A stretch of 64,000 nt of DNA. It comes from Eledone cirrhosa. Its lineage: Eukaryota. The notes under the pieces were generated by a model. It was not told the DNA's origin and ran no database searches. It worked only from the letters and a program-made list of their open reading frames with translations. The translations under genes were made by a program, and so were the position numbers. The DNA is taken from positions 74,276,001 through 74,340,000 of the forward strand of contig OZ024746.1 of assembly GCA_964016885.1 (NCBI GenBank). The letters are read 5' to 3'. Below, piece by piece: positions 15,222 to 40,258 of this stretch; positions within the stretch are counted from its first letter, which is position 1; every line of letters begins with the position of its first letter.

Positions 15222-15256
<35 letters not shown>

Positions 15257-15298
15257 TATTATTACTTTTTTTTTTTTTTTTTTTTTTTATCCAATTCA

Positions 15299-18200
15299 AT
15301 GATGTTCCAGAACAATGTAAACGAGATAATTGCCAATTTGGGTTCTGGAACAAAAAAGATCATTGGCAATAAGGGCAGGGGCCCCAAGTTATCACAACCT
15401 GGGCCCGCCCGTCATCGTGCCATTGTAATAGAGCCAAACAGGGCATTTAGTCTTGGCTGCTGGAACGTACGGACGCTGCTTGACAGGGATTCTTTGGAGC
15501 GTCCTGAACGAAGGACCGCTCTTGTTGCAAAGGAGCTTCGACGTTACGATCTTGACATCGTGGCTTTGTCTGAGACGAGGTTAGCTGGGGATGGTCATCT
15601 TACGGAATTTTGTGGAGAATATACATTCTTCTGGAAAGGAAGAGATGAAGGAACCAGAAGAGAGGCTGGGGTAGGATTTGCTGTTAAGACTGTACTGGTG
15701 AATAAATTAGAAGAATTCCCAGTGGGGATTAGTGAGCGTCTTATGTCCATGAGAGTTCCGCTGGACAGGGGAAGATATGCTACCCTGGTGAGTGTGTATG
15801 CTCCAACTATGAATTCTGTCGATGAAGAAAAACTGTCCTTTTACCATGCCTTGAAAGGTGTTTTAAGAAATATCCCTCAGGCAGACAAAGTCATCGTGCT
15901 TGGTGACTTTAATGCTAGAGTGGGTAGGGATTTTAACACATGGAATGTAATCGGAAGGCATGGGGTGGGAAAGTGTAACAGCAATGGTATGCTCTTGCTG
16001 CAGATGTGTGAGGAGCTGGATCTGTGTGTTACCAACACCATGTTCCAACAAAAGAACAAATTCAAGACCACATGGATGCATCCTGCATCTAAGGAATGGC
16101 ATCTTTTGGACTACGTCCTAGTCAGGATGCGTGACAGACAGGATGTGCGGTGTGTTCGTGTTCTTCGTGGAGCTGAGTGCTGGACGGACCACCGCCTGGT
16201 ACGCGCAAAAGTGAATCTAATCACCAAACGTAAAATCCGGGCTCCTGGTGTTGCCCTGCCCAAAAGATTGAATGCTGCTCGTCTTAAGGATAAAAATGTG
16301 AAGAGGACATTGGAAGAAGAGATGCAGGCTGCAGATCTTGGTGAGGATTGGCCGACCCTTAAAAAGTCGGTTTATGATGTAGGCAGACGTGTTCTGGGAT
16401 TGGTGCAGAGAAAACATCAGGACTGGTTTAATGAGAAAGATGTGCATATAGATGACTTGTTGGCTAATAAGAGGCGCGCCCTGTCACGCTACTTGACGGC
16501 AAAACCACAGGAGAGGAATACGTTGCATGAGGAGCTCAGGGATGTAAAATCACGTGTTAGGCGGAGTCTTTCTCAGATGAAGGATCAGTGGTGGAGTGAG
16601 AAGGCTGGTGAGATACAAACTGCGTCTGATTGCAATAACACAAAGCTGTTGTACAGTCTCTTGCGTGAGGTTTATGGACCGTCTTCTTCTCTGGTGACAC
16701 CGATTCGCAGCAAGGATGGCAAAGAACTTATTCGTGACTCACAGGGAATTCTACGAAGGTGGCGAGAGCACTTTGATGATCTTTTGAATCAGCCGTCTGT
16801 CGTCAGTGAAGATTTCCTCAATCTCATTCCGGAAAGTCCTGTGAAAGTAGCTCTCGCAGAACCTCCGACACTTGTGGAGGTTGCAGTGGCTATTTCGAAG
16901 CTGAACAGTGGAAGATCTCCAGGTATGGATGGCATACATGCTGAGCTCCTACAATATGGTGGTGAGAGACTCCTGCAACATCTTCACTCTCTGTTTGGAA
17001 GGATATGGGCTAATGAATCCGTGCCTGAGGACTGGAGAGATGCAGTAATGGTGGTCTTGTACAAGGGAAAGGGTAACAGGAATGATTGTGGGAACTACAG
17101 AGGTATATCATTGCTTTCTGTCGTGGGGAAAGTTTTATGTAGGGTGCTTCTGGACCGTCTGCTGACACACATTGCAGATTGTGTCCTTCCTGAAAGTCAA
17201 TCTGGTTTTCGTGTTGGACGCGGCACTACTGATATGATCTTCTCAGCTAGACAGCTCCAGGAGAAGTGCATTGAACAGGGCTTGGATCTGTATCAGGTTT
17301 TTGTCGATCTGACAAAGGCTTTCGATACTGTCAACAGAGATGCATTATGGAAGGTTCTCCAGAAACTTGGTTGCCCTGATAAGTTCCTTGCTTTAGTTAG
17401 GTCTTTCCATGACGACATGAAGGCTTGGGTTAATGTCGGAGGTAACATGTCGGAGCCTATCTCAGTAAAAAATGGAGTGAAACAGGGGGATATTCCAGCA
17501 CCGACCCTGTTTGCCATATACTTTGCAATGGTTTTCTGTATTGCATTCAGGAATTGCGAGCATGGTGTTTACATCCGATATCGAACCTCAGGCAGCATAT
17601 TTAACATCAGGCGCTTTGCTGCGAAGACAAAAGTATTTACATCAGTCATAAGAGACCTCTTGTATGCAGATGATTGCGATCTTGTAGCGCACACAGAGAG
17701 TGATATGCAGCACATTTTGAATGTATTTTCTGACGCTTGCACTGCCCTGGGTTTGACTGTCAGTCTCAAGAAAACCGTCGTCATGTACCAACCTGCACCT
17801 GGTAGGCAGTACACTGAACCAAACATCTATGTGTATGGCAAACGACTTGGAGTGGTTGATCAGTTTGTCTACCTGGGAAGCACTGTCAATCGATACGGCA
17901 ACCTTGACAGTGAAATCTCACTTAGGATTAGGAAAGCAAGTGATGCTTTCGGAAAGCTAGAAAGGCGACTCTGGGGTCGGCGAGACATATGCAGGAGGAC
18001 AAAGGTAAAGGTGTACAGGGCATGTGTACTCTCTTGTCTTCTTTATGCCTGCGAGACCTGGGTCACATATCGACGCCACCTTAAGCAATTGGAGCGTTTC
18101 CATCAGATGTGTCTCAGACGGATACATGGCGTTCACTGGAGGGACCACATCAGTGATGTCGAGATTTTGGAAAGCTCTATGTGTGACAGTATAGAAGCTC

Positions 18201-18844
18201 TTGTGCTTAAGCAGCGACTCCGTTGGAGTGGTCACCTTGCCAGGATGAAGGATTCTAGAATACCAAAACAACTCTTCTATGGAGAGTTGGTTAAAGGAAA
18301 ACGACCGCCACATAAACCAAAAAAGAGGTATAAGGATTCCTTGAAAGCCTCTCTGAAAGACGCTAACATCTCTGCTGATACATGGGAAAATATTGCTGCT
18401 GATCGTAATAAATGGAGAAAGACTGTATATGAGGGAAAAGTTGCCTTTGAGGCATCTCGAATCGCACACGAGAAAGTAAAGCGGGACGTGAGGAAGGGTA
18501 TTGCTGTTGCACTTCCAGACGGCGAGGGTCCTCCTATGTTTCTGACATGCAGCGTCTGTGCGAGACTCTGCCTAAGCAAAGCTGGACTCGAAAGTCATCT
18601 TCGCAGTCATAAAGTAAGACCAGTGGTTGACTACCAGGCTGCTGTTGGAGATGCTACTCATCATGCTTGCCAAACATGTGGTAGAGAATGTAAATCAGCA
18701 GGAGGACTCAAGCGACATGCAAAAGTACACGAACTCCAACCACAGCCGACTATTCCCAGTAAATGTTTTGGTTGCCGACTCTGTGCAAGACATTTTAGAT
18801 CATTGGCTGGGCTAAAAAGCCACATTCGATCGCAGCACTGTTAG
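15299..18844 (+). CDS. Intact RTE-clade LINE ORF: APE endonuclease + reverse transcriptase + three C-terminal C2H2 zinc fingers (1181 aa)
   Basis: APE motifs GCWNVRTL, SETR, YAPT, GDFNARVG, LDYVLV, TDHRLV. RT motifs NYRGISLL, QSGFR, DLTKAFD, GVKQG, LLYADD, YLGS. C2H2 fingers CSVC..HLRSH, CQTC..HAKVH, CRLC..HIRSQH. No stops or frameshifts. Confidence 0.96.
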   Translation: MMFQNNVNEIIANLGSGTKKIIGNKGRGPKLSQPGPARHRAIVIEPNRAFSLGCWNVRTLLDRDSLERPERRTALVAKELRRYDLDIVALSETRLAGDGHLTEFCGEYTFFWKGRDEGTRREAGVGFAVKTVLVNKLEEFPVGISERLMSMRVPLDRGRYATLVSVYAPTMNSVDEEKLSFYHALKGVLRNIPQADKVIVLGDFNARVGRDFNTWNVIGRHGVGKCNSNGMLLLQMCEELDLCVTNTMFQQKNKFKTTWMHPASKEWHLLDYVLVRMRDRQDVRCVRVLRGAECWTDHRLVRAKVNLITKRKIRAPGVALPKRLNAARLKDKNVKRTLEEEMQAADLGEDWPTLKKSVYDVGRRVLGLVQRKHQDWFNEKDVHIDDLLANKRRALSRYLTAKPQERNTLHEELRDVKSRVRRSLSQMKDQWWSEKAGEIQTASDCNNTKLLYSLLREVYGPSSSLVTPIRSKDGKELIRDSQGILRRWREHFDDLLNQPSVVSEDFLNLIPESPVKVALAEPPTLVEVAVAISKLNSGRSPGMDGIHAELLQYGGERLLQHLHSLFGRIWANESVPEDWRDAVMVVLYKGKGNRNDCGNYRGISLLSVVGKVLCRVLLDRLLTHIADCVLPESQSGFRVGRGTTDMIFSARQLQEKCIEQGLDLYQVFVDLTKAFDTVNRDALWKVLQKLGCPDKFLALVRSFHDDMKAWVNVGGNMSEPISVKNGVKQGDIPAPTLFAIYFAMVFCIAFRNCEHGVYIRYRTSGSIFNIRRFAAKTKVFTSVIRDLLYADDCDLVAHTESDMQHILNVFSDACTALGLTVSLKKTVVMYQPAPGRQYTEPNIYVYGKRLGVVDQFVYLGSTVNRYGNLDSEISLRIRKASDAFGKLERRLWGRRDICRRTKVKVYRACVLSCLLYACETWVTYRRHLKQLERFHQMCLRRIHGVHWRDHISDVEILESSMCDSIEALVLKQRLRWSGHLARMKDSRIPKQLFYGELVKGKRPPHKPKKRYKDSLKASLKDANISADTWENIAADRNKWRKTVYEGKVAFEASRIAHEKVKRDVRKGIAVALPDGEGPPMFLTCSVCARLCLSKAGLESHLRSHKVRPVVDYQAAVGDATHHACQTCGRECKSAGGLKRHAKVHELQPQPTIPSKCFGCRLCARHFRSLAGLKSHIRSQHC

Positions 18845-19212: not shown

Positions 19213-21749
19213 ATTATTATTATTTGCATTTATCTTGCTTTATGTTTATACGAGTTATCACCAAGTCACAACCAGTGACCTCAAGAGACAACAAGGTCCG
19301 CCATGTTCAAGAAAGAACACACATATTCACACATGCATCCTTAGTGTTTAGACTTGTGATGTACTTATATTGACAGGATCTTCCTTAGTATATGGGCAGT
19401 TCCCATTAGTACTATCTTTTGTATTTCTCCTATACGCGGGTTTCCTGGGATTTGCGATAAGTAGTCGTTAGACCCCTTAGGTATCATTCCCAGAGCGCCT
19501 ACAACCACTGGTATTGTTTTAGTTCTCAATTTCCACATTTTTCCAATTTCTATCTCCAGGTCCTTATACTTGCTCAATTTTTCAAATGTTTTTATAGATA
19601 CATTCTTGTCTATTGGAACAGACATATCAATTAGCAGGCATACCCTCCTTTGAAAGTCCTTCAATATTATATCAGGTCTATTTGCATCTATTTTTCGGTC
19701 TGTTTGGATGCTAAAGTTCCACAAGATTGAGATGTGATCTTTTTCAAGTATGGGAGGTGGTTGATGCTCCCACCAATTCTTTTGATGGGGCAGGTCAAAA
19801 TGCTTGCACATTATCCAATGTATGTATTGTGCAGCTCTGTCATGCCTGTTTAGGTATTCGGTTGGAGCTATAGGACTGCACATTGAAATTATATGGTCAA
19901 TGGTCTCTGGTTGTTTTTTGCATACACGGCATAATGGGCTGCACCCATTTTTTATTATGTTGGCTTGGTAATTTTTTGTTGGCAGACACTGATCTTGTGC
20001 GGATATAATCAGTCCTTCAGTCTCCGATTTCAGTCCAGAGGATGCCAACCACTGATGGGTTAAAGTTTTGTCAACATCAGGATTGTTAGCTCGCTCTGGG
20101 TATTTTCCATACAGAGGCTTTTCTTGCCATTTCTTAGCCAGTTTCTGTAGCAGTTCTTTCTTTGCAGTTACTTTTACCTGCTTTGCTTTTTCTGTGTTTT
20201 CCATTTCAGCAGTAAATGGGACTTCTGAAATTTGTAGTCCATTACTGTATCTTTGTGCATCTTTTGTAATGGAATATGATCTTTTGGTGCTTTCGTGTTT
20301 CAAAACGAGTTTGATCATCCAATCATGTGACTCCCTTAGATATGTGGATAATCCAATTGTTGCAGTTTTCAACGCAATGTCTAACTGGATTAACCCACGT
20401 CCTCCTTCTTTCCTAGGGAGATATATTCTATCTATGTCTGCCTTAGGGTGATGCATTCTGTGCATGGTTAAGAATTTTCGGATTTTTGTATCGAGCCTAC
20501 GGATCTCTGTGCTTGACCAGTTGATGACATTGTAACTGTAGGTTACTACTGGTATGGCAAGCGTGTTTATGGCATCGATCCTATTCCTTGCATTCAATTC
20601 CGTTCTTAAGATTGCTCTGACTCTGCGGTAACATTCCTTCCTTATCCTTTCCCTCATTGTCGAGTGCTTGATTCCGTCTCCTTCACAAACACCTAGATAT
20701 TTGTAAGTTTGTTCTTGATCAAGCTCTCTTATCACGTTCCCCCGATCAAGATTAATGTCTGAACTCTTCAGCAGCTTTCCTCTGGTGAACGTTGCTTTGG
20801 CGCATTTATCCAGTCCAAACTCCATTTTAATGTCATCACTGAACTGCTCCACAGTGGATAATAGCCCTTGCAATTGTTCATCATTTTTTGCAAATAGTTT
20901 CAGGTCATCCATGTAGAACAGGTGATTAATGGTTTTGTCATAGACTCTATATCCATGTTTTGTTTCATTGAGCATTTTACTTAATGGTATAAGTGCGATG
21001 CAGAATAAAAGCGGTGATAAAGAGTCACCCTGAAAAATTCCACAATTAATGTTAACTTCTCCAGCTTCCAGTGATTTTGTTTCACTATTCAAAAGGAGTG
21101 TCGTTCTCCATGTCCTCATACTGAATGACAAAAACCTCCTGATAACGGGGGATATTTTGAAAATCTCTAAACATTTTTCAATCCAACTGTGTGGCAAACT
21201 ATCAAATGCTTTTTTATAATCTATCCAAGCAATCGATAGATTTTTGTGTCTATTATGACAATCTTCCAGTATCATTTTGTTAACCAGAAGCTGATCCTTA
21301 CAGCCATATGAGCCTCGTTTACACCCTTTCTGCTCAATGGGAAATAGGTCATTTGTTATCAGGTGGTCATATGTGTATTCAGTTAGGACTGATGTTAAAA
21401 TTTTATACATTGTGGTCAAGCAGGTTATCGGTCTGTAATTTTTGGGATTGTTTGTCTCATCATTCTTCGGTAGCAGGAATGTAATGCCGTTAACTAGCCA
21501 TGATGGTATCTTTTCTGGCTCCTTAACTATTTCATTGTAAAGTTGGGCTAACAGCTCATGAGACTCTGTGAAGGCATTTATCCAAAAGTTTTGTATTTTG
21601 TCTTTTCCTGGGGATTTCCATTTGCTGGTTTTTCTTAGAGCCAAGCGCAGCTGTTCAACTGTTATATTTTCCCATGTTTGTTCTTCAAGGTGAGCTGTTT
21701 CTTTCATTTGTCTGTCTATCCATGGGGCATGTATGTTATGAACTTTTTC

Positions 21750-21787
<38 letters not shown>
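19202..21787 (-). mobile_element. Dong-like LINE inserted in a (TAA)n microsatellite
   Basis: A ~140 nt 3' UTR ends in (TAA)n at 19202-19222, and the 5' truncation abuts (TAA)n at 21749-21787. TAA targeting is known for Dong (R4 clade). Confidence 0.8.
19365..21749 (-). CDS. 5'-truncated R4/Dong-like non-LTR retrotransposon ORF: RT + CCHC knuckle + restriction-like endonuclease
   Basis: [69 protein letters not shown]. The frame is open upstream of the first Met ([14 protein letters not shown]) to the (TTA)n junction at ~21749. Confidence 0.92.
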
Positions 21788-21816
<29 letters not shown>

Positions 21817-21873
21817 GTGCAATGGCCATACTCGATAACGAGGGGGCAGCCATCATGTATATATATATGTATG

Positions 21874-22029
<156 letters not shown>

Positions 22030-22075
22030 AGTATATGTTATTTATGTGTTGTGTATGTTTGCACATATACATTCG

Positions 22076-28987: not shown

Positions 28988-29058
28988 TATTTTATTATGC
29001 ACATTTCAAAAACAAATATCATCATGGGATGATATTTGCGTTCTCATCAGATAAAATA
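28988..29058 (-). ncRNA. Type I hammerhead, inverted copy of 29639-29709
   Basis: Reverse complement is identical except stem III ATGTGCAT. Confidence 0.8.
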
Positions 29059-33200: not shown

Positions 33201-33761
33201 ATATTGATAGATATTAAAACTTTTACATTACATGAGTGATTCAATGAAAAATATAAATCTGTTTTAAACAGAATAATCATTCTCAAATTTTGCCGAATGT
33301 GGCCCCTTTTAGGACAAGTATGTAGTTTAACTAAATGTAACTCATAGGCTTTGTGAATTAAAAAACACGGCGGACATATGTCCATATTTACTAAAGTTAA
33401 GATGGTATTTATGGTCGTAATTATAATATAATACGATTGCCTTAAAATATTTTGACGTTTCTTTTAAATAACTATATCGTTTTCCTATTAGAAAGGAATA
33501 GGGTGGGTAAAAAAATCGAGAAACAAACGAAAAAAAAAAATGAAAAATACATAATAACAAATAAATCTCAGAGGTATTTTTAGAGATTCAGGGAGAAGTA
33601 TAAAATTGTTCCTAAAGGAGTTGATATTGACACATCTTAATTCTGAACTGTTTACCACAAATGAAGCACCATGACGTTTTGGTCAAAATTTCATTACACA
33701 AAAACCTGTCGAAAAAAGCTTCCTTCTACTTTCATAGAATATATATATATATATATATATA

Positions 33762-33821
33762 TGCAACCATGCAGTATTCTTCTCCCCATTTTTTCACATA
33801 TATTTACCTAAACTGCGATTC

Positions 33822-33865
<44 letters not shown>

Positions 33866-34335
33866 TGCTCCCTCGTTCTCTCTGTTTCTCTTACTTTCTT
33901 TCGTCCCCTCTGTCATGTCAGTTAACACTTTCTCTCTACTGACCTCTTCCTCACACTTCCACTCACTGTTTCTCCCCTTCTCACTTGCCCCCGTTCGCGA
34001 CGTTAACGATTTTCCTTCTTTCTTACATCGGATTCATCTCGAAAGGTCTATTTTTTACTCGCTTATATATTCACCCAGCTTATACTGATAGAATAACTAT
34101 GTAGCTTGTGTCTCTTCCTATCTTCGGTTAGCTTTCCTCTGTGTTGTTTACTTGTCTCACTCTCTTTACGCGTTTTAATTGTCCTAATAACTTATTTTAG
34201 TTATTATTGCGCCAACGTGAGGTATATGATTTTTAATGCAATGAAATACCTATGACCGTTGGTAAATCACTGATGAGGGTCTCATTTTATAACATGTTAT
34301 CCATGTGCAACCATGCAGTATTCTTCTCCCCATTT

Positions 34336-34340
<5 letters not shown>
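33762..34340 (+). mobile_element. Non-coding element, 544-bp unit with ~35-bp terminal direct repeat, carrying the permuted hammerhead
   Basis: TGCAACCATGCAGTATTCTTCTCCCC at 33762 and 34306; flanked by (TA)n on both sides. Confidence 0.75.
34211..34277 (+). ncRNA. Candidate permuted (pseudoknotted) hammerhead ribozyme with k-turn
   Basis: GCCAACG/CGTTGGT outer helix, k-turn, stem III GGTAT/ATACC, AUA site, stem I TGATTT/AAATCA, GAA at 34243, CTGATGA at 34270. Confidence 0.65.
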
Positions 34341-34771: not shown

Positions 34772-35050
34772 TATATTAATAAAAGGAATTCCAACTTTGA
34801 TTTACTCGTTTTATTTACAATCCTTTAAAATTATAATGGTATTAGAATGAAATAGTATGGTTGAATATTAAATGTTAAGTGTTAATTGAACAAGTACTTT
34901 CATACTTTCGCAATCTTTCGCAATCTTGTTCAATTAACACTTAACATTTAATATTCTACCATGATATTTCATTCTAATACCATTATAATTTTAAAGGATT
35001 GTAAATAAAACGAGTAAATCAGACAAAGTTGGAATTCCATTTATTAATAT
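34772..35050. repeat. Inverted repeat with ~120-bp arms
   Basis: 34772-34893 is the reverse complement of 34925-35050. Confidence 0.9.
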
Positions 35051-35320: not shown

Positions 35321-35354
35321 AGAGAGAGAGAGAGATATATATAGAGAGAGAGAC

Positions 35355-35790
35355 CTGTGATACGTCTCTTCGTTACGCCAGTGGAGTCCTTGCTGCTGTA
35401 CGGGTCTGTGACTTGGTCACTGACCAAGAGACTCAGATGGTGGATGGGTGCTACACGAGAATTCTGAAGATGGCTCTGAACGTTAATTACTATACACTGA
35501 GGATGAAGGACCCAGAATTGTACGGGAACCTTCCAAAAGTCAGCTCGAAAGCGACACAGAGGAGATTAAGTTTAGCTGGACATGTTCACCGACATTCAGA
35601 GCTGACACTGCACTCAGTGCTCCCGTGGGAGACCCTACACCGGCACACTGGAAAAGGAAGACCGAGGATGACGTATATTGATGCCCTAAGGATAGACACT
35701 TGTCTTCGGGAGACGCAGGACATGGCGGCGATGATATAAGGACAGAGACCGCTTGAGAGAATTCGTCCATGGATGTCGCGAATTTTACCT
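35355..35790 (+). pseudogene. RTE-like LINE 3' fragment
   Basis: DGCYTRILKMALN, ELYGNLP, RRLSLAGHVHRH, GRPRMTYID. Confidence 0.85.
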
Positions 35791-35808: not shown

Positions 35809-37037
35809 TTCCCACGATGGGACTTGTTCACCTTTGATTTTCTCCTATTTTTTCTCCTATTTTTCTCCTTTTTTCTCCCCATTTTTCCTTTCTCTCTTTC
35901 TTCCTTTCTCCCCCCCCCCTGTTCTTCCTCTTTTCCCCCTCTTTCCTTTTTTCTCCCCCCCCCTTTTTCTCCCTCTTTTTTTCTCTCCTTTCTCTCTCCT
36001 TTTCCTCCTGGCCTTTTGATTAATATAAGGCCTCGGGCGCTCCCGATTTCGACCGATGTTCTGTAATTCAGCGCCGAAGCATCGGATCGGGATATTTACA
36101 GCTGACGAAGGATTCTCCTTTCTTTCTTTATCCTCTTGTTCCTTCCTAACCACCATTCTAAACCTTGTCTTTGTAACCACACAGCTTCTTTCGTTTCGTA
36201 TCATTTTGTATTTGCCGCTGTGACCCTACTTGCTTCGGTCGATCTGTGTTCCCGCCACACTTTCGCATCGGCCCTCCACTTTTCTCTTCCCTTCTCCTCC
36301 TCACTCTCGTTTCTTTCTCTCTGCCTCCCTCTCTCTATCCATCCGTTCGGTTTTGATTGTTGACATGTTTACACGTGTCATCGGGGCTTCTCTGTTCGCA
36401 AATCTTTGCAACACGTTTTTACCACCGTAGTGAAAAGAACCCTTCTGGATTATCTCCCTTTCTCTTCTGCCCCTCACATTTGGTTGCTCGTGCCTCTTTC
36501 TCACTCTCTCTTGTTTATGAGATAGGCAACACGATTATGCCGGCTCCAAGTCGTAGCTGACCACCAGGCTTAAGTCTCCCAGGTTGGCCACAACTTACTT
36601 TCCCTATTTTTCCACGGTTACTCATTTGCATGTTTCTTTCTCCTGTGTCTTCCCTCGATGGGACCTGTTCACCTTTTTTTCTCCTACTTTTTCTCCTATT
36701 TTTCTCCTTTTTTCTCTCCTTTTTTCCCTTCTCTCTTTCTTCCTCTCTCCTCATCACCCCCCCCCCCCTGTTCTTCCTCTTATTCCTCTCTTTCCTTTTT
36801 TTCTCTCCTTTTTTTCCCTTTTTATCCCTCTTTTTTTCTTCCTTTCTCTCTCTTTTTCCTCCTGGCCTTTTGATTAATAAAAGGCCTCGAGTGCTCCCGA
36901 TCTCTACCGAAACATCGGATCGGGATATTTACAGCTGACGAAGGATTCTCCTTTCTTCCCTTCTCCTCTTGTTCCGTCCTAACCACCATCCTATACTTTG
37001 TTTTAGTAACCACACAACCCCTTTCGTTTCGTATCAT
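35809..37037 (+). mobile_element. Non-coding element, ~840-bp unit with ~400-bp terminal direct repeat, carrying the permuted hammerhead
   Basis: 35809-36205 matches 36650-37037; flanked by (TA)n. Confidence 0.8.
36041..36111 (+). ncRNA. Second candidate permuted hammerhead (deleted paralogue at 36895-36944)
   Basis: TCCCGAT/ATCGGGA, CCGATGT/GCATCGG (ACATCGG in the paralogue), GUU site, CTGTAA/TTACAG, CC-GAA, CTGACGA-AGG. Confidence 0.6.
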
Positions 37038-37074
<37 letters not shown>

Positions 37075-37221: not shown

Positions 37222-37412
37222 ATGTAAAAGGTAAACAGAAATAACAACACAATCGGTACAGTATATGGAAGGTATATATTAGGTATATAACGCTTGATAT
37301 AGCAGGAAGAGGGTCGAACGTTTCGGAAGCTAGTCCTTCATCAGAAGAAAGAATGAGAAACAAAATAGATTGACGGGACGGGCGTGATGGAATAACAGGT
37401 CCATTCATCTTG
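37222..37412 (-). mobile_element. Penelope-like 3' fragment with a hammerhead core but no obvious stem I
   Basis: Minus strand CTGATGAAGG-actagctt-CCGAAACGTT at 37316-37343, between microsatellites. Confidence 0.5.
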
Positions 37413-38925: not shown

Positions 38926-39171
38926 TATTATTATTATTAATATTATTATTTATTAAAATATTGTTTTATGATTCAAATCTTAAATCGTACCCTGATGTAT
39001 GGACGCTCTGCCTTCTGCCTTTCAGACATATTTATACTTTTTTTAATTCACACTCCTTTCGAAATGTAATCTCTTATTTTTCGATATTTTTATATTTAAA
39101 AAAATTACCTCGCATTTCTTTCTTTCAATATCTCTCATTTCTCTCTCCACACACATATATATATATATATA

Positions 39172-40050
39172 CGAAGTGTGTCAGAAAAGTTCCAGGACTG
39201 ATGTCACAAAAGATTTATTTCAAACCCAAACTTCACACTAAGAGTTTCCTCCTTCAAAGTAATCCCTCTGGAGTATGTAACTGTAATCTTAGCTCTCTGC
39301 AGTGATCAAACTTTTTTCTTCATAATTTTATGTCCTCTGTTTCAGGTCGTCAAGCAATGAGCACAGAACAACGAACAAACTTGAAGTTTCTTGTACGGTT
39401 GGGGAAAACTCCATCAGAAGCACTGGGATTGCTACAGCAAGTGTATGGAGATGAGAAGATGTCACGCTCACGTGTTTTTGAGTGGTGCAAGATGACCCCA
39501 GGAGCGGAAGGCCCTCAACAACAAAGACTGAGGTCAACGTTGAGCGCGTCAGGCAGATAGTGCGTAGCGATCGTCGGCTGACTGTTCGACTGATGGCAAA
39601 TGGGCTGGGCATGAATCGGGACAGCGTCTGGAAGATTCTCACTGAAGATTTGAACATGCGGAAAGTCTGCGCGAAGATGGTGCCAAAACTGCTGAACGAT
39701 GACCAGAAGGCTCGACGCATGCAAGTGTGCCAGGACATCCTCGAGCGTCTTGAAACGGAACTAGACTTGCTAGGGACAGTCATCACCAGTGATGAGTCAT
39801 GGATCTTCGAGTACGACCCGGAGGGGACCCGTTTTGAAGGCGTGGACGACATCAAAAAGGCCGTGACGACGGAACTGCGGAGGATCCCTGAAGAATCCAT
39901 CCAGGAGTGCATGCAAGCGTGGCAGAAAAGAATGGAAAAGTGCATTAGACTCCAGGGGGATTACTTTGAAGGAGAAACTCTTAGTGTGAAGTTTGGGTTT
40001 GAAATAAATCTTTTGTGACATCAGTCCTGGAACTTTTTTGACACACTTCG
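39172..40050 (+). mobile_element. Mariner (Tc1/mariner) transposon, internally deleted, non-autonomous
   Basis: ~100 bp TIRs (39172-39273 / 39949-40050) flanked by TA. Transposase remnants EQRTNLKFLVRLGKT..VYG, DDPRSGRP, WKILTEDLNMRKVCAKMVPKLL, ITSDESW, GDYFEG. There is a frameshift, and the middle of the catalytic domain is deleted. Confidence 0.93.
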
Positions 40051-40258
40051 TATATATATATATGTGTATGTGGCCGAAATTCGAGTACGGGTATACAATG
40101 AAGGTACTCATTTAAGTGTGTTGTATTGAAGGGAATAACTATGTGTCTACTCTGGAATTTTACGTAAAAATACCTATTGAGTACGCTGGGATGCAACCGG
40201 TACTAGCAGCGAAACCCATGCTAGACCCGTCAACTTATTATATATATATATATATATA

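Follow-up and report, generated by a model that had tools for sequence, protein, structure and literature searches.

A locus at 36003-36112 of the window (the whole 64,000-nt stretch of Eledone cirrhosa DNA analyzed here) carries a copy of a motif that we consider likely, from comparison of sequences, to be a hammerhead with a permuted core; for its intact relatives we predict self-cleavage, a stem II with one strand taken from upstream, and a four-way junction at A9/10.1. On balance it also appears probable that such motifs constitute a fourth-block hammerhead class, in which A9 opens into a four-way junction and not into stem II; that this class supplies the 3' ribozyme, hitherto overlooked, of Naiad elements in cnidarians, ctenophores, molluscs, arthropods and acanthocephalans, the nematode Naiads being CSG; and that it drives more than 10,000 retrozyme copies in this genome.

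The motif lies on the forward strand within a non-coding element, termed family A (35810-37038), which comprises some 1.5 units of 833 nt arranged head to tail, is 5'-truncated and is flanked by (TA)n. The initial annotation had described a permuted hammerhead at 36041-36111, and all of the elements it listed are in place: an outer helix (36041-47/36086-92), a bulge (36048-52), stem III (36053-59/36079-85), N17 (36060), stem I (36061-66/36096-101), CC-GAA-G (36074-79) and CUGACGA (36102-108). The motif nevertheless extends beyond those coordinates, to approximately 36003-36112, and three of its parts were absent from that account, namely an upstream stem II strand, a hairpin (H5) and a closing helix (Pc). 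Reading from the 5' end, the 5' strand of Pc (36003-36006) is followed by H5 (36007-36035; stem 36010-17/36025-32), which is 99.6% paired in the family A alignment and has T at 36026 in this copy where the family letter is A, and then by the upstream-supplied 5' strand of stem II (36036-36041, G10.1 being 36036), whose partner is 36070-36075 and whose 5 pairs each form in 24-27 of 27 copies. The 5' strand of the outer helix P0 (36041-36047), the counterpart of the helix 'I' by which type-SGC ribozymes tie stem I to stem II, is joined by the bulge (36048-36052) to block S (36053-36066), which contains the stem III 5' strand, the predicted cleavage site after 36060 and the stem I 5' strand. Block G (36070-36085) then supplies the 3' strand of stem II, GAA-G and the 3' strand of stem III, and is followed by the P0 3' strand (36086-36092, pairing with 36041-47), the stem I 3' strand with the CUGACGA core (36096-36108; stem I partner 36061-66) and the Pc 3' strand (36109-36112, pairing with 36003-36006), which begins immediately 3' of A9. 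The core letters of a hammerhead (CUGAnGA, GAAA, NUH) are present in family A, but in this copy alone A15.1 is G (36079), which breaks the core, and the predicted cleavage site reads GUU versus GUC in the family. Since G at that position should cripple a hammerhead, 36041-36111, a decayed copy (U at 17, G at 15.1), is likely inactive.

Two further copies of the motif lie nearby on the same strand. The duplicate within the family A element (36857-36945) had been reported to have lost its cleavage strand, and the deletion is real, with 21 nt missing between two CCGA words, so that the cleavage site and the stem I 5' strand are gone. The other belongs to a family B element (33759-34339; unit about 531-540 nt, copies 98-99% identical, within (TA)n), whose motif (34181-34281) comprises Pc (34181-84/34278-81), H5 (34185-206), stem II (34207-11/34237-41), P0 (34212-17/34257-62), a k-turn consensus (34218-20/34251-56), the site AUA (34226), GAAA (34243-46) and CUGAUGA (34270-76); in Pc, this copy has T at 34280 where the family letter is A. 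The remark that the ancestral element used a bulge instead of a k-turn is borne out for subfamilies A1 and A2, family B having the k-turn consensus at the same place.

A descriptor of the form site..GAA(A/G)..CUGAnGA, with stem I of at least 5 and stem III of at least 4, was run on both strands of the 64-kb window and returned exactly two matches, 34226 and 36060, the latter only when A15.1 was relaxed. Both have the 5'-3' core order site, GAAA, CUGAnGA, a non-circular permutation, and the topology said to be common to 36041-36111 and 34211-34277 is confirmed. It is very improbable that this is a chance arrangement within a repeat, or that cleavage occurs only as a canonical dimer between neighboring units: although the folding energy of 36041-36111 by itself is unremarkable (z -1.3, not significant) and minimal Penelope hammerheads can act as dimers, the descriptor rate of 0.04 (strict) or 0.06 (relaxed) per shuffled window in 100 local dinucleotide shuffles is far under the two matches observed, and the three core helices all close within a single 110-nt unit and covary. 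Rfam gave no match to the motif at gathering score and no hammerhead match to E=10; searches of viral contigs gave 0 matches, and of the metagenome matches listed (at least 120 loci) 0 fitted the descriptor.

Intact relatives of the 36041 copy are abundant in the genome. The dispersed repeat that contains it yielded 1067 first-look candidates, the best other copies being 87-91% identical, and other family A copies have GUC at the site and GAAA in the core. A 27-mer running from site to GAAAC (GUC..GAAAC) has 276 exact genomic copies versus 0 in a reversed control; among copies chosen by the upstream hairpin alone, 20 of 30 keep the site, GAAA and CUGAnGA together; and at 36060 and 36079 the contigs of three runs, all from one sample, have C and A, respectively, in over 99% of depth. 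These three lines of evidence uphold the earlier suggestion of an intact core in family A, and the reconstructed consensus proposed for assay is unnecessary because intact natural copies exist.

Sequence comparison identified six helices common to the subfamilies (Pc, H5, II, P0, III and I). A pattern for the upstream hairpin had 10,619 exact genome matches versus 0 in the control, from which subfamilies C-H were recognized, and further subfamilies with the same upstream stem II pairing were met as passengers in other loci. The B-type alignment holds 34 copies (33 of 69 distinct rows plus one older B copy), near-identical family B having been given one row and truncated, deleted or redundant copies having been omitted, while that of family A holds 27 of roughly 50 sense-strand rows. 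In the former 90.2% of cells are paired, with changes on both sides in 22 of 37 pairs, and in the latter 89.6%, values that count copies and not events and that come from mostly intact rows, chosen as such, from which the structure was itself derived. Covariation in the B-type alignment was 0.369, compared to 0.174 when shuffled and at most 0.096 when slid, and P0 was 92% paired with double changes in 5 of its 6 pairs. Stems I and III sit next to the core and covary in both alignments. Stem II is almost invariant inside family A (one double change), its covariation coming from the B-type subfamilies and from comparison between families. The letter right after A9 in family A switches together with its upstream partner (UA 15, AU 7 of 27), and Pc occurs among copies as GUCC/GGAC, AUCC/GGAU and UUCC/GGAA; in alignment A1 the Pc of subfamily C is off by one column, so that its 78% for Pc is an underestimate.

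The wiring of stem II is where the motif departs from the initial annotation, which had formed this stem from CC and the GG after CUGACGA. Such a block-C stem II was rejected, as it is paired in only 28% and 40% of cells in B-type copies and 49% in family A, versus about 90% for the six-helix structure. At most 1-2 bp are possible between the letters 3' of CUGAnGA and the strand before GAAA, while in family A, family B and the further subfamilies the latter strand forms 5-6 bp with the strand just 5' of the outer helix. The order site-GAAA-CUGAnGA is that of type SGC, which cleaves in vitro (HRIMA-1 and variants; Eckert et al., 2023, PMC10085705); in the sections of that paper drawn on here, type-SGC ribozymes come from metatranscriptomes only, with none from genomes of known organisms, and the published alignment gives them a stem II of 4-5 bp after an inserted U. 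The copies here have no intact block C, with a stem II strand within 0-2 nt of CUGAnGA, and it is for this reason that we set the motif apart from type SGC, to which its predicted working is similar.

Sequestered ribozymes are common in viroid-like circles, and the motif could be an ordinary type-SGC ribozyme with a block-C stem II of 1-2 bp, the upstream pairings acting as an off-switch that keeps the circle inactive. The extra letter after A9 does covary with 11.1 among B-type copies (UA 12, AU 9, UG 4 of 34), and in 25-26 of 27 family A copies the GG after the inserted letter could pair with CC. We nevertheless judge this alternative unlikely, as pairing in a block-C stem II fails past the first one or two pairs, against the 4-5 bp of the SGC alignment, and the upstream strand recreates the exact linkage between stem II and helix I of SGC ribozymes; furthermore, in three Naiad ends, parsed by eye from portions of a published consensus file, no block-C pair with C11.1 is possible.

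The preferred six-helix arrangement places the core, Pc, H5 and stem II in a predicted four-way junction, because the post-core strand and the pre-GAAA strand both pair upstream; the fold predicted from these sequences is therefore a four-way junction at A9/10.1, with P0 connected to stem III through a k-turn consensus in B types and a bulge in family A. The B-type k-turn is a sequence consensus, a 3-nt bulge followed by tandem G-A/A-G between two helices with 2n often U or G, and family A is without it. The R10.1-Y11.1 position is a G-C pair supplied by the upstream strand in 26 of 27 family A copies and is paired via the extra letter after A9 in 25 of 34 B-type copies; most copies of subfamily C have G at 11.1, lack the extra letter after A9 and hence form no canonical R10.1-Y11.1 pair. 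In nested folds (helices I and II are pseudoknots, beyond the reach of the folding program), the probability of Pc was 0.77 in an intact family A copy and 0.11 in family B; it was 0.00 in both copies from the window, in which a hairpin over G8/A9 competes with it.

A further possibility is that the fold is kept for protein binding or RT recruitment, cleavage having been lost and the core letters being a relic. Consistent with this, the 10.1-11.1 pair is weak or missing in subfamily C, cleavage is here a prediction from sequence, and hammerheads may merely parasitize Penelope-like elements, as Craig et al. (2021, PMC8557442) suggest in a part of their text. We hold this to be quite unlikely, given that the NUH site, GAAA and CUGAnGA stay constant across subfamilies and phyla while the helix letters vary, and that N17 is limited to C, A or U in nearly all copies.

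The 36041 motif had been called an independent second instance of the permuted hammerhead, in which 'independent' overstates the case. Families A and B show no similarity by BLAST, but a covariance model built from B-type copies alone detects A3 copies of family A at E 5e-7 to 0.1 and the 36041 copy at E 0.017, and for this reason A and B are probably distant branches of one motif class.

The carriers of the motif are non-coding units of 470-850 nt, arranged in 5'-truncated arrays of 1-3 head-to-tail units and inserted in (TA)n, with over 10,000 copies in the genome according to the hairpin pattern matches. Their 3' unit end falls in (TA)n at a short, family-specific distance from the core: in family A a microsatellite lies 87-111 nt 3' of the core in 40 of 60 copies, versus 2% of random positions, and in F/H copies (TA)n lies 15-21 nt 3' of the core in 11 of 20, the corresponding family B sample being biased in that its query included the 3' end. 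The 98-99% identity among family B copies indicates that mobilization is recent, and 400 kb of arbitrarily chosen stretches contain three B-type motifs. Inverted pairs of motif-bearing units are found at L063:1399-2383 and L392:1166-1810, as in Penelope-like inverted insertions. We propose that tandem transcripts would be cut once per unit, after N17; the cut monomers would then circularize, a Penelope-like RT/GIY-YIG protein would prime internally within the RNA, at its (TA)n, from nicked (TA)n, and copying beyond one circle round would yield the arrays of 1-3 units.

The Naiad-like RT lineage is present in this genome as remnants only (12 motif hits; 82 matches, longest open frame 233 aa). 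Across 15 loci (11 extended stretches and 4 further) no same-strand motif was attributable to Naiad remnants, and an exact search of the genome for an octopus-Naiad motif gave 0 matches. The present mobilizer is probably another (TA)n-associated Penelope-like clade, since the Naiad lineage detected in this genome is dead. A long multi-cadherin frame and the resemblance to octopus Naiads indicate that the host is probably a cephalopod. Penelope-like elements with a C-terminal GIY-YIG are abundant (10,596 candidates), with some RT/GIY-YIG frames open over 844-1096 aa. The motif was built into an autonomous Penelope-like element in 0 of 50 GIY-YIG loci; a canonical type I hammerhead followed by (TA)n was present in 6 of 50 Penelope-like loci. 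The window also holds canonical type I hammerhead motifs at 29050 (-), 29647 (+) and 47341 (-), the first two forming an inverted pair like those in Penelope-like loci, and at 37310-37344 (-) a CUGAUGA..stem II..GAAAC arrangement, outside the type I descriptor, that resembles a minimal Penelope hammerhead end. Additional repeats in the window include an intact-looking LINE (15224-18844, +; a 1206-aa open frame that encodes APE endonuclease, RT and C2H2 fingers), another LINE with an 890-aa RT frame (19365-22037, -), near-perfect MITE-like inverted repeats with arms of 97-99 nt (34798-35021 and 39150-40072) and a fragment at 35350-35790 (+) that is like an RTE-type LINE 3' end by translation, with no Pfam match.

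In the parts of Craig et al. (2021, PMC8557442) on which we draw, Naiads target (TA)n and contain no canonical hammerhead, some of them having unexplained 'HHR_core' or 'HHR_half_core' cases with cores that fit no descriptor. We parsed Naiads by eye in one full part and in search windows of that paper's consensus file, which holds 54 Naiads. Within this material all six helices could be recognized close to the Obim and Ovul 3' ends, which also show the k-turn and the UAUUUU loop of family B, and likewise near those of Amil, Aacu, Anas, Movir-2, Plae, one Clytia entry and a crustacean entry that its place in the file marks as EuTe. The hosts so parsed include octopus, corals, box jelly, acanthocephalan and crustacean, with unrelated helix letters, and in the Acropora, Pomphorhynchus (Plae) and crustacean entries the letter that follows A9 has an upstream partner and is unable to pair with C11.1. 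By eye, Bfor has the layout with a 2-bp stem I and Esco has the core order with poor stem II and Pc; no parse was reached for the Ppla and Darwinula ends, and the motif was not seen in the ends of Movir-1, Chem-1 and Omin in the consensus file. Taken together, these parses suggest that the six-helix layout is likely the ribozyme that Naiads were thought to be without, and that the motif here may derive from the 3' end of Naiad elements. Two other arrangements appeared in the portions of supplement S5 parsed by eye: a clean type-CSG order in six nematode Naiads (Nbra-1, -2, -3 and three others), a type known from two metagenome sequences only in the relevant section of Eckert et al. (2023), and, in a probable spider Naiad (part 17), site..GAAA..CUGAnGA, its stems I and III being long and its stem II being formed by block C past a short insertion, which is closer to true type SGC.

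If the class is real, the apparent lack of hammerheads in Naiad elements would be explained, animal genomes would contain non-circularly permuted ribozymes in high copy number, and no census of hammerheads or retrozymes based on descriptors would have detected this class. CUGAnGA and its stem II strand would be separable, against the assumption in Eckert et al. (2023), as worded in the section consulted, that these two adjacent parts are inseparable, and the A9 junction would offer a new attachment point for engineered switches. In the open-access PMC and bioRxiv literature we found neither the four-way topology nor any permuted hammerhead from an animal genome described, and within that literature the junction at A9/10.1 is so far undescribed.

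Compared with known systems, the motif shares with type SGC, in the published portions considered here, the S-G-C core order, a helix that connects stems I and II at their distal ends, a frequent extra letter after A9, and linkers of matching length (3-4 nt between stems I and II, 1 nt between stem II and helix I). It differs in that block C of type SGC consists of a 4-5 bp stem II strand and then helix I, whereas here the stem II and helix I strands sit 5' of block S and A9 leads into the closing helix, the P0 strands having a different 5'-3' order from SGC helix 'I'. Like the non-LTR retrozymes, as characterized in parts of Cervera and de la Pena (2020, PMC7229834) and Li, Clavereau and Pollet (2026, 10.64898/2026.07.22.740005), where a Penelope-like origin is proposed for them, the elements are non-coding, low-GC head-to-tail units with one hammerhead each, dispersed as monomers to multimers; those retrozymes, however, have type I hammerheads and units of 150-450 bp, whereas the present units, of 470-850 nt, carry the permuted motif in place of a type I hammerhead. 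With Naiads, to the extent of the published material drawn on above, they share (TA)n targets, partial tandems, 5' truncation and the six-helix motif seen by eye near several consensus 3' ends; Naiads encode EN and RT, whereas the elements here encode nothing.
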